From Schmidtea polychroa (taxonomy: Eukaryota), in NCBI GenBank assembly GCA_044892525.1, contig CM097885.1, positions 4,776,001-4,840,000 of the forward strand: 64,000 nt of DNA, written 5' to 3'. Positions within the stretch are counted from its first letter, which is position 1. Each line of letters opens with the position of its first letter. The translations under genes were made by a program, and so were the position numbers. The notes under the pieces are model-generated. The model had not been told where the DNA came from. It saw only the letters and a list, made by a program, of their open reading frames with translations, and did not search any database. Shown here one piece after another: positions 14,407 to 23,700 of the stretch.

Positions 14407-15037
14407 TTTATTTATTATAAAATGACCTCAAAGAGTTCCTCTACTGAAGAATCTTTGCAAGAATTAATAAATTCAAATAAAAATAAATCAATAGTAATTG
14501 ATGGTAAAAAATATTTTATTGGAAAACATGTAAAAGAACAAGTTAGAGCGAAGCTGAAGAAGGCGGCATTCTTCCATTAGCTGCTTTAATACCTGCAATC
14601 ATTGCTGGTTTATCAGGTGCTGCTGGAATAGCTGGAGGAATTGCAACTACAGTTCAAAAAGCTAAAGAATCTCAAAAGACAGACCTAGAAAAAGAAAAAC
14701 TACAAACTGAAATCGATTCAATGAAGAAGGTAGGGCAAGCTAAGGGAAAAGGCCTCTATCTTAATCCATATGAGGGGACTCTGTCTGAAGGTCAAAAGTC
14801 TCAGGGGACTCTGTCCAAGGGAAAGGGTCTCTATCTTGATCCTTATAAAGGTAGAGGTTTAAATGATTTTTTAAAAAATCAAATTTCTACATCTGAATCT
14901 TTATCTTCAAAAGATAAAGAAGATTTAAAAAAAATATGTAAATCTTTAAAGAATGGATGCAGTAGTGGGATGTGTCACCACTGGCACATGTCACCTCTGG
15001 GGGGGTAAACGAAAAAATTTTTCAAGGTCAAATTTTA

Positions 15038-15460
15038 AACAAAGACATATGACTCATCAAGGTCATTGAAACAAAGACCATGACTCATCTTATGACGCAT
15101 CAAGGTCATTGAAACAAAGACCATGACTCATCCTATGAATCATCAAGGTCATTGAAACAAAGACCGTGACTCATCGAGGTCATTGAAACAAAGACCGTGA
15201 CCCATCGAGGTCATTGGATGACTCGCCAAGGTCATTGGATGACTCACCAAGGTCATTGAAACAAAGACCATGACTCATTCAAGGTCATTAGATAACTCAT
15301 CAAGGTCATTGAAACAAAGACCATGACTCATTCAAGGTCAATGGATGACTCATCAAGATCATATTTTTAAGGTCAAAGTCATATTTTTAAGGCCAAGGTC
15401 ATATTTTTAAGGTCAATGTCATATTTTTAAGGTCAAGGTCATATTTTTAAAGTCAAACGT
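15038..15460 (+). repeat. Tandem array of ~30-40 bp units containing TGACTCA and TCAAGGTCA
   Basis: Unit 'tcaaggtcattgaaacaaagaccatgactca' repeated with variants, followed by 'aaggtcatatttttaaggtc' units. Confidence 0.9.
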
Positions 15461-20462: not shown

Positions 20463-20762
20463 TTACATGTATATATTATGATATTCATTAATCAGTGTTG
20501 AACAGGCTTGACAATTGTGAACATTCTTCTCGTGACACTTAGAACAAACAATTACGTGACCACACGGTAAATACAAAACCGAAACTTGATTTTCTTTACA
20601 AATTGAACAAGTTAAATACCGTTTCTTAACATCGTACAGTTTTTCCTTTAGATTATTTTCAATCAAATCGGTTTTTGCTATCCATTCAAAAATCAAATTA
20701 GTGTTTTCAAAATCTAGAAATTGTAACCATGGTAGAACCTTCAAATGTCTAAGTAACATCAT
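20463..20762 (-). CDS. Small IAP-type RING-finger protein (right-arm copy)
   Basis: Inverted copy of 18408-18707; 3 amino-acid differences, all N-terminal to the RING. Confidence 0.85.
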   Translation of the reverse strand: MMLLRHLKVLPWLQFLDFENTNLIFEWIAKTDLIENNLKEKLYDVKKRYLTCSICKENQVSVLYLPCGHVIVCSKCHEKNVHNCQACSTLINEYHNIYM

Positions 20763-23700
20763 ATTGTATAACAATAATAATAAGCATGACTAGTACCCTT
20801 GCAACCTGTTGAGTGTGAGCAGTACCCATAGGGAGACAAAATATTTTGTCGGATAGACTAGGAGCATATATAATAATAATAATAATAATATACTTTGAAA
20901 ATAAATAATAAGAAATTTGAAAATAATTTTGAAAATATTGAAAATCGTGAAAATTATGAAAATCGTGAAAATTATGAAAATGATAAAAATGTTGAAAATG
21001 ATGAAAACGTTAAAAATTATGAATTATGAATTATGAAGTAAATAATAATAAAACATCGAAAATAAAATAATAAGAACTTCGCAAAAAATAATAATAATAA
21101 TAGTAATAATTAAAATAACAATAATAATAATATACTTTGAAAATAATTCTTTGAAAATAATTCTTTGAAAATAATACTTTGAAAAATATTCGATGAAAAG
21201 TTTCTGAAATAATCATGAAAATGTTGAAAATCGTGAAAATATTGAAAAATGTTGAAAATGATGAAAATATTGAAAATGATGAAAACGTTAAAATTTATGA
21301 AAATGTTCCTAAAAATAATCATCAAATATTGAAAATCGTAAATTGATGCAGAAAATAAAATAATAAGAACTTCACAAATAATAATAATAATAATAATAGT
21401 AATAATAATAATAATAATAATAATAATAATAATAATAATAATAATAATAATAATAATAATAATAATAATAATAATAATAATAATAATAATAATAATAATA
21501 ATAATAATAATAAATAGGAGTTTTACAACATTAATTTCACAAAATACACTGAATGAGATTCATCGATTATGACACCACAACTCTGACATCTACTACAGTT
21601 TTTCAAACATATGGAACAAATAATGATATGACCTTGAGAATAATAATATTTTGAAAAATAATAATATGATATTGAAAATAATAAAATAATAATATTTTGA
21701 AAAATAAAAATATGACCTTGAAAATAATAAAATAATAATTATAAAGTTATAATAATAATAATAATAATAATAATAATAATAATAATAATAATACCCTTGG
21801 GACATGTTGAATGTGACTAGTACCCTTACGACAAATACACATAGGGGGACACAATATTTTGACTCTATAATAATATTGATTAAAACTTCGAAAATAATAA
21901 TTTTGAAAATAACATCTTCCGCGCGGCATTAATATCTTTCCCAATAATAATGATAAATTAAATTATTACGTAATCAATAATTAAAACAAAAAATATTATA
22001 TAAGCAACGATTTAAACAAAATGAAATTATTATGTATTCGATAATTAAAACAAAAAATAAAATTATTATTATATAATTAACAATTTAAACAAAATTAAAT
22101 TATTACGTTTTCAATAATTAAAACAAAAATAAAAATATTATTATATAATTAACAATTTAAACAAAATTAAATTATTACGTATTCGATAATTAAAACAAAA
22201 ATAAAAATATTATTAAATAATCAACGATTTAAACAAAATTAAATTATTTCGTAATCGATAATTAAAACAAAAATAAACCGCTGGAACAAAAATAGATGTC
22301 TTTGTTACTAAAAATAGAACGACCTTGGCGAGTCATCGGATCAATGATCGGATCAAAAATGTTACTAAAAATATATTCAATGGCGCGTCATTGCATTTGT
22401 TCAAAAAATAAATGAGTCATCGATGAGTACTTTTTTATTACCGTTTGTTTGATATGTATATTATAAGGTTTGAAAAATTTAAACCTTGGATCCTTGGACT
22501 CTTTGACCTTCAAACTTAGACCATCATATTCATCTTTGAATTACCTTTTGTTTGATATGTATATTATAATGTTTCTAAAATTTGAACCTTGGACCCTTCG
22601 ACCTATGGACCTTCGAACTCACCTTCGAATTACCTTTTATTTGATATGTATATTATGAGGTTTTAAAAAATTTGAACCTTGGACCCTTTCGAGGGTATGC
22701 CCTTCAAGGGTATGACCATCATACTCACCTTTGTATTACCTTTTATTTGATATGTATATTATGAGGTTTTAAAAAATTTGAACCTTGGACCCTTTCGAGG
22801 GTATGACCTTCAAGGGTATGACCATCATACTCACCTTTGTATTACCTTTTATTTGATATGTATATTATGAGGTTTTAAAAAATTTGAACCTTGGACCCTT
22901 TCGAAGGTATGACCTTCAAGAGTATGATTATCATGATCACCTTTGTATTACCTTTTATTTGACATGTATATATCTATATGTATAATTTTTAAAGGTTTTG
23001 GACCCTTTGAAGGTTTGAAGTTTCAAGACCATTCATAAACCTTTGAAAGTATGACCATGATACTTACATCTCAAATACCTTTTGTTTGATATGTATATTA
23101 TAAGGTTTTAAAATTTTTGAACCTTGGACCCTTGGACCTTCGAACTCACCATCAAAAGTACTTTTGAATGATATATATATATATATATATATATATTATA
23201 TGATTTTAAAAATATTTAATTTTGGATACCCTTTGAAGGTTATTGACCCACCATTCACCTTCGAGGGTATGACCATCATACTTACCTCTCAAATACCTTT
23301 CGACTGATATATATATTATGAGGTTTGAAAAAATTCGAAGGTTTTTGACCCTTTTAAGGTTATTGACCCACCATATACCTTCGAGGGTATGACCATTAGA
23401 TAGATCTCTCAAATACCTTTCGAATGATATATATATATATATATATATATATATATATATATATATATATATATATATATATAATAAAGTTTGAAAAAAT
23501 TCGAAGGTTTTTTACCCTTAGAAGGCCGAGGACCCACCATACACCTTCGAGGGTATGACCATTAGATAGACCTCTCAAATACCTTTCGAATGATACCCTT
23601 TAGTAAAGGTTTGACTTTAAAAATATGACCTTGACCTTAAAAATATGACCTTGACCCCAGAGGTGACATGTGCCAGTGGTGACACATCCCACTACTGGAT

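Follow-up and report, generated by a model that had tools for sequence, protein, structure and literature searches.

A 64,000-nucleotide stretch of the Schmidtea polychroa genome (assembly GCA_044892525.1, contig CM097885.1; G000:C1:4776001-4840000, here called the window) holds a Polinton/Maverick element that is interrupted by a second, palindromic element with a RING-type reading frame in each arm. We characterized this inner element by self-comparison and direct reading of the window and by searches of the 781-Mb genome, which is assembled in chromosome-scale contigs. The insertion covers 14961-23696 (8,736 bp); it starts with AGTAGT and finishes with ACTACT, the (AGT)2//(ACT)2 form of the Polinton/Maverick-type 5'-AG...CT-3' ends.

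The palindromic element and the Polinton it interrupts

Minus-strand self-BLAST divides the element into two inverted arms, together 83% of its length, and a unique spacer (Table 1). This agrees with a preliminary description of the locus, which had given the same span and ends, the target-site duplication (TSD) GGATGC, and arms of ~3.9 and ~3.4 kb around a ~1.5-kb spacer. That description set the shared terminus at 39 bp; the inverted end is indeed shared, but on direct reading the perfect inverted repeat is 42 nucleotides (nt) long. Its outermost 35-mer, AGTAGTGGGATGTGTCACCACTGGCACATGTCACC, is present at 14961-14995 (+) and 23662-23696 (-) with 0 mismatches, and 0 matches were obtained in 100 shuffles. 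The arms are made largely of tandem arrays and microsatellites. Their innermost 800 bp are 98% identical and the remaining blocks 86-98%, with indels in the tandem-repeat arrays, and the 513-bp difference in arm length consists mostly of ~400 bp of subterminal repeats that are absent from the right arm. The GC content of the element interior is 21-24% versus 28-31% in the surroundings (whole window, ~28%), and the spacer is 88-91% identical to single-copy sequence in relatives of the element.

The interrupted Polinton, hereafter the host Polinton, has the ends AGTAGTGTG.../...CACAGTACT and encodes an integrase, an ATPase and a family B DNA polymerase (PolB). The insertion lies within a small open frame, which restarts at 23703 and reaches a stop at 23754-23756. 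The host family is abundant: a 521-bp probe gave 735 first-look candidates, and all 40 that were scored were 96-100% identical. In three of three uninterrupted host paralogues (L064-L066) the site is empty: ...AAGAATGGATGC is followed directly by CTTTGTAAAAC... and GGATGC is present once; the frame continues for 18 codons, including another GKGLYLxPF motif, before its stop. The integration was therefore clean and cut an open frame, which bears out the earlier claim that removal of the element restores the reading frame. The name 'pX-like' given to this frame was not retained, its Pfam match to Adeno_PX being insignificant (E 0.66; 10.3 bits against a cut-off of 25).

No enzyme for replication or integration was found in the element, as had been claimed, by scanning for open reading frames (ORFs), by Pfam or by tblastx. 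No ATG-started ORF of at least 100 amino acids (aa) lies inside it; apart from the RING frames described below, 0/12 frames from spacer and arms matched Pfam, and the spacer (18837-20333) has no Pfam-detectable coding content. A tblastx comparison with four Polinton references returned repeats and RING pieces only, with no PolB or integrase remnant, and no capsid or packaging gene was found by ORF scan, Pfam or tblastx. An Rfam search of 11000-33000 gave no 7SL piece and a single match, which at 34.8 bits fell below the gathering score of 80; a tRNA scan found no tRNA.

Table 1 Coordinates of the element, the host Polinton and related features (window positions unless a contig is named)
Feature	Position	Strand	Details
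Left TSD copy	14955..14960		GGATGC, 6 bp; direct reading
Left terminus	14961..15002	+	42 nt, starts (AGT)2; direct reading
Left arm	14961..18836		3,876 bp; minus-strand self-BLAST
Subterminal tandem arrays	15048..15457		Periods 43, 31, 21, 53 and 20 bp, AAGGTCA cores; also beside ends of the autonomous copy
Fragment of autonomous-copy-type RING gene	17794..17886	+	Last 31 codons (93 nt), 96.8% amino-acid identity; tblastx/self-comparison
RING frame	18381..18707	+	108 codons stop-to-stop; Pfam zf-C3HC4_3 E 8e-10
Spacer	18837..20333		1,497 bp, unique; minus-strand self-BLAST
Palindrome junction (between 20333 and 20334)	20331..20347		Microhomology TTG, 3 nt
Right arm	20334..23696		3,363 bp, inverted copy of left arm; minus-strand self-BLAST
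Mirror RING frame	20463..20789	-	108 codons; Pfam zf-C3HC4_3 E 8e-10
Mirror copy of RING gene fragment	21541..21633	-
Right terminus	23655..23696	-	42 nt, finishes (ACT)2; direct reading
Right TSD copy	23697..23702		GGATGC, 6 bp; direct reading
Host Polinton	11660..32352		20,693 bp with insert, ~11.95 kb without; terminal inverted repeats ~735 bp, TSD GGTTAG
Host rve integrase	12644-13582	+
Host A32-type ATPase	13594-14406	-
Interrupted host open frame, 5' part	14547..14960	+	Hydrophobic N-terminal stretch, repeated GKGLYLxP[YF] motifs
Host PolB	27182-31342	-	1,386 aa
Other palindrome in the window	46493-59897		TSD GACGGG; ends AGTAGGGAG.../...CTCCCTACT
Autonomous Polinton	C1:30213168-30231991		18.8 kb; TSD CATTAT, terminus with 1 mismatch

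A terminus shared with an autonomous Polinton family

At up to three mismatches, the 35-nt terminus has 366 matches in the genome (175 forward and 191 reverse), against 0 and 0 for a reversed control. Identical 6-bp flanks were found in 13 of the 16 end pairs examined, the window's own pair among them. Once two pairs had been dropped as non-independent (the window's segmental duplicate, described below, and a near-identical copy on an unplaced contig), a matching 6-bp TSD remained at 12 of 14 independent pairs, so that further copies with 6-bp TSDs do exist. The family also includes relatives with ordinary terminal inverted repeats (TIRs) of 0.6-1.2 kb.

The same terminus bounds an autonomous Polinton on the same contig (34/35 nt identical to the left terminus of the element), which encodes an rve and chromo domain integrase, an A32-type ATPase, an adenain-type protease, a 1,337-aa PolB and an ORF resembling TATA-binding protein (TBP). 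A 114-aa RING ORF lies directly downstream of PolB, near the right end; this copy has TIRs of only ~0.85 kb and a single RING gene. Full-length copies of its integrase number at least 97 at 97-100% amino-acid identity, most of them without stops. The arms of the element are colinear with the RING-side end of the autonomous copy, where the subterminal arrays and the 93-nt RING fragment recur in the same order. Because its terminus is common to an autonomous Polinton of the same genome, the element is a non-autonomous Polinton derivative, and its termini do not match another transposase family. The integrase of the host Polinton is only 29% identical to that of the autonomous family. The termini tie the element to the latter and not to the Polinton in which it sits, and the helper that they suggest is of another lineage than the one interrupted.

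The reading that we favour, with a probability of roughly 0.8, is that of a non-autonomous Polinton/Maverick derivative that was integrated in trans, became palindromic by a fold-back inverted duplication and carries its RING frames as passengers. The parent would be a young, high-copy Polinton/Maverick family of the same genome, from which the element would have kept the 42-nt (AGT)2 terminus, the subterminal arrays and decayed accessory pieces at the RING-gene end. To judge from the ends and the TSD, a Polinton integrase acting in trans would have joined both ends into the small open frame of an unrelated Polinton, producing the 6-bp duplication. Dependence on a Polinton integrase is the natural reading of these sequences, dependence on its polymerase a probable one, and any extrachromosomal replication would presumably need the protein-primed polymerase of the helper. 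The preliminary description spoke of a satellite or hyperparasite using Polinton enzymes in trans. Polinton-type ends, the 6-bp TSD and the lack of own enzymes all stand, the use of enzymes in trans is what we infer from them, and the label itself falls away, as it says no more than 'non-autonomous member of a Polinton family'.

Repeat libraries contain entries for non-autonomous Polintons, and a literature search of limited extent turned up no description of palindromic or RING-bearing ones. Foldback (FB-type) transposons, whose TSD is 9 bp long, similarly have a central loop between long inverted arms composed largely of tandem subrepeats and code for little or nothing; the element differs from them in that its ends and TSD are of Polinton type and its terminus recurs on an autonomous Polinton. 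In vertebrates, (AGT)2//(ACT)2 ends and perfect 6-bp TSDs are a hallmark of Mavericks, whose TIRs measure 46-1,447 bp in intact copies and have a proposed role in the 'jumping back' of protein-primed initiation (PMC8097293). The element resembles Mavericks and Polintons in its end motif, 6-bp TSD and TIRs, but lacks PolB, integrase, capsid, ATPase and protease, and its arms of 3.4-3.9 kb lie outside the range that this source gives for vertebrates. Ginger2/TDD elements also generate a 6-bp duplication through a relative of the rve-type integrases, but are described as ending in TGTNR and preferring RTATAY targets (PMC2836005); the element ends in AGTAGT, and of the 12 matching TSDs, TATATA alone fits RTATAY, the rest being without a common pattern. 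The element is therefore best filed as an unusually long-armed variant of a known element type with remnant accessory cargo, and not as a new kind of agent.

Targeting of Polintons, for which the preliminary description had suggested a test, is not shown by these data. Polinton coding sequence was present in the 1.5-kb flank at 4/21 independent insertion sites (3/20 without the query), which may or may not exceed the Polinton share of the genome.

Several other members of the family were noted. An 11.6-kb palindromic member (L047+L048, G000:C1:113118242-113129810, and L049+L050) has 12-nt flanks that are inverted with respect to each other, tatagtGAGGGG / CTCCTCactata; the inversion does not reach into the 1.5-kb flanks, and a near-identical copy of this pair lies on an unplaced contig. 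Pairs of a related terminus 0.4-0.9 kb apart (for example, G000:C3:91855147-91855564 and C3:101990859-101991277) are derivatives the size of miniature inverted-repeat transposable elements. Within the autonomous Polinton, the TBP-like ORF (L031:4655-5092, minus strand; 145 aa) adjoins the ATPase gene and contains a TATA-binding-protein domain (PF00352, E 1.3e-14), with a homologue in a second copy (L033:4722-5183). The autonomous integrase frame (L031:6409-7584, plus strand) contains an in-frame run of ~50 isoleucine codons, an ATT microsatellite, within the catalytic core; this is an intron left unspliced or else an insertion that is tolerated.

Origin of the palindrome

The right boundary of the spacer is a novel join. 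Past this point, six of the six relatives that reach it continue TTGGGTGTAATATATC..., but the element instead reads TTGCGCCCAATATA..., which matches the complement of the left arm exactly, running backwards from 18836, with TTG common to both continuations. The left arm and spacer, by comparison, are colinear with non-palindromic relatives such as a 17.9-kb chimera and a 6.7-kb member. Since only the right arm begins from a new join, the palindrome is, to judge from these alignments, a private inverted duplication of one arm that has replaced the other end region. The element thus presents what defines a copy-back form: a discrete join beyond which one end is replaced by an inverted duplicate of the other. 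The chimera (L033+L034, G000:C1:69945032-69962900; TSD CCTAGT) is itself composite: its left 6.9 kb resembles the autonomous Polinton as far as the middle of the integrase (93-97%) and its right ~8.8 kb is colinear with the spacer and arm of the element.

The 39-mer that spans the junction has two genome matches, one in the element and one 38.6 kb upstream. The upstream occurrence falls within a segmental duplication of at least 29 kb (G000:C1:4746001-4775379 versus window 9357-37942; 99.6% identity) that lies 38.6-39.4 kb upstream and contains the host Polinton, the insertion, and the adjacent proteasome-subunit and MFS genes; as part of this duplication, the upstream copy represents the same insertion event. 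The insertion is 9,490 bp long there and has a third RING frame, owing to an additional ~0.8-kb tandem repeat (781-bp offset).

Under the favoured reading, copying would have switched at the 3-nt microhomology to the complement of the left arm and run out to a second copy of the terminus. The most likely route would be a template switch of the fold-back type. It could have been made by the polymerase while copying a linear molecule outside the chromosome, or in an integrated copy whose break was mended from its other arm; the two give the same product. The second of these can be put as an explanation of its own, in which an ordinary non-autonomous copy was broken in the chromosome and repaired from its own other arm without any extrachromosomal replication. 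Repair would begin in the shared subterminal repeats, copy inward and rejoin by microhomology, extending a TIR of ~1 kb to 3.4-3.9 kb. We consider this a contender, at less than even odds. It accounts for a junction that is private to this locus and its duplicate (two of two genome matches), for the 3-nt microhomology at the join and for the intact termini and TSD, and the TIRs of ordinary relatives provide the homology needed. It does not sit easily with palindromic RING relatives that recur with equal spacing at unlinked loci, nor with the other palindrome of the window, in which each arm of ~6.2 kb carries a 960-aa DNA_pol_B_2 (PolB) ORF around a 1,053-bp spacer: 4,974 nt of these arms are 100% identical and the palindrome has its own TSD. 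That palindrome arose very recently, by inverted duplication of half a Polinton.

Palindromic forms do arise repeatedly in this genome. The terminus of the element also bounds two further, independently palindromic members, whose spacers measure 1,662 and 1,948 bp. Among the best 150 of 4,749 RING-frame candidates, a top-scoring and hence biased sample to which the counts of RING pairs and of open RING copies given here refer, 43 close RING pairs were counted by eye, at most 10.1 kb apart, all convergent and none divergent. The same spacing recurs at unlinked loci, with 6,143-6,145 bp at four or more loci and 7,400, 6,407, 7,461 and 7,681-7,682 bp at two loci each, which indicates that palindromic forms spread as units. 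A 12-kb palindromic RING element (left half L063) has a related terminus, AGTAGATGGTATAGTCACC..., with 93 genome matches, and its predicted right end was found by pattern search at C1:62641748-62641782.

Polintons are thought to replicate as free linear DNA by a protein-primed polymerase and then to integrate, and we know of no direct observation of this extrachromosomal cycle. Palindromic deletion forms are known from adenoviruses and linear plasmids, and Murthy et al. 1998 are reportedly the source for the subgenomic molecules of phage phi29. In this protein-primed phage, such molecules are ascribed to template switching by the polymerase (PMC4974454). The element shares with copy-back forms of protein-primed replicons a mirrored end around a short unique centre, with the same origin at both ends, and its join shows microhomology; unlike those forms, which are described as free viral or plasmid DNAs in infected cells, it is integrated with a TSD, and its formation by replication is presumed, with repair in the chromosome as a rival. 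A bolder proposal can be built on this likeness, namely that the long-armed palindromes of this genome (the element, its independent palindromic relatives, the amplified RING-pair families and the PolB palindrome) are integrated copy-back defective genomes, formed when the Polinton polymerase switched strands on the free linear form. They would then be a footprint of extrachromosomal replication and would behave as defective-interfering-like satellites that compete with their helpers, some with a working, double-dose IAP-type RING gene. We offer this as a speculation that is unlikely to hold.

If palindromes of this kind do arise on the free replicating form, they would constitute indirect evidence for that form and a class of Polinton parasites. 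Derivatives that lack enzymes and keep their ends show in addition how much sequence is enough for integration, here 42 nt plus subterminal arrays, and the mapped fold-back junction shows how one end becomes two. The hundreds of termini and thousands of RING-frame candidates also amount to long, hairpin-prone repeats that will confound assembly and gene annotation of this genome.

A different history would have the layout inherited, with autonomous Polintons that possess very long, RING-bearing TIRs and palindromes that are internal deletions of them. Two convergent RING pairs 20.7 kb apart, each enclosing an integrase 99% identical to the autonomous one (C1:251239042/251259755, integrase 251242029; C1:254910637/254931341, integrase 254927391), speak for this account, as does the convergent orientation of all 43 close pairs. 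It runs counter to the novel right-arm boundary, through which all six informative relatives read into other sequence, to the colinearity of left arm and spacer with non-palindromic relatives, and to the short TIRs and single RING gene of the sequenced autonomous copy. For this element we judge it improbable.

Several observations weigh against the favoured reading of a fold-back derivative mobilized in trans. Two of the 14 independent end pairs lack a matching TSD (one a probable non-pair, the other with inverted flanks), and two of the 12 matches are AT-only hexamers at the widest, presumed pairs, with ends 41 and 65 kb apart. The exact palindrome occurs at one locus and its duplicate, so the element may never have moved as a palindrome. 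The divergence of the arms, ~2% in unique sequence, and their 513-bp length difference imply that the duplication was not very recent and that its details are partly eroded. Mobilization in trans is deduced from sequence, and the 20.7-kb pairs suggest that full elements can have a RING gene in both arms, which would give palindromic relatives a simpler origin by deletion.

RING frames and neighbouring features

The RING gene of this family encodes a 163-aa protein in its ATG-started copies, inside a 183-aa stop-to-stop frame. Homology of the left RING frame to this protein is limited to the last 79 codons (18468-18704), corresponding to residues 85-163 and preceded by 29 unrelated codons. The two arm frames differ at three amino-acid positions in 108 codons, and both retain all eight zinc ligands (CSIC...CGH...CSKC...CQAC). 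In a comparison with solved structures in the PDB, the nearest to the family RING were those of cIAP1/2 and XIAP (E 2e-8). The family protein resembles IAP-type RING E3 ligases (cIAP1/2, XIAP and baculoviral IAPs) in its C-terminal C3HC4 RING of the zf-C3HC4_3 type; it differs, as predicted from sequence, in its length of 163 aa and lack of a BIR domain, for which neither the 183-aa frame nor the 108-aa frames gave a match.

Eight independent relatives were picked by their termini and not by ORF, with the near-identical contig copy entered a single time; in seven of them the RING frame has a frameshift, stop or deletion, and in the eighth it has lost a cysteine. Because only 79 of 163 residues are kept and the gene decays in these relatives, we read the RING frames as what is left of an accessory IAP-type RING gene of Polintons after 5' truncation, and as passengers here. 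Of the RING E3-like gene previously assigned to each arm, one RING frame per arm is thus upheld and an intact gene is not. Homologues of the 183-aa frame formed one cluster among 34 candidates, on contigs of about 1 kb or less, which supplied no function; one member of the cluster yielded the ATG-started form of 163 aa. Short contigs from two runs of presumed RNA type lie over the RING frame, and one of them ends in a poly(A)-like stretch near 18929; for a multi-copy family this is no firm sign of transcription.

It has to be considered whether the paired frames instead form a functional satellite, in which a working IAP-type E3 ligase aids the element or its helper and the palindrome was selected to double the dose. 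The intact zinc ligands and the likeness to cIAP and XIAP RINGs are compatible with this, RING genes have been kept in two Polinton lineages with 38% identity to each other, and 33 further places have an open copy of the truncated 108-codon variant. These open copies come, however, from the top-scoring sample, and the loss of more than half of the homologous protein, the damage in all eight terminus-picked relatives and the three differences between the arm copies all make such a function very unlikely. Least credible of all is an assembly artefact, in which a fold-back chimeric long read created a false inverted duplication: long palindromes are a known class of such artefacts, but the arms are non-identical in both substitutions (~2%) and length, the outer ends have proper termini and the same TSD within different, non-mirrored flanks, and the junction is repeated 39 kb away in a second copy, 99.6% identical, that has a ~0.8-kb tandem duplication of its own.

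Two further features of the window were recorded. Just upstream of the host Polinton, ORFs at 7544-8932 encode RING (zf-C3HC4), TRAF zinc-finger and MATH domains; they belong to a TRAF-like gene of the cell that has no relation to the RING of the element. Between the two Polinton regions, at 39445-43162, lie remnants of long-terminal-repeat retroelements with zinc knuckle, RNase H, integrase H2C2 and rve domains.

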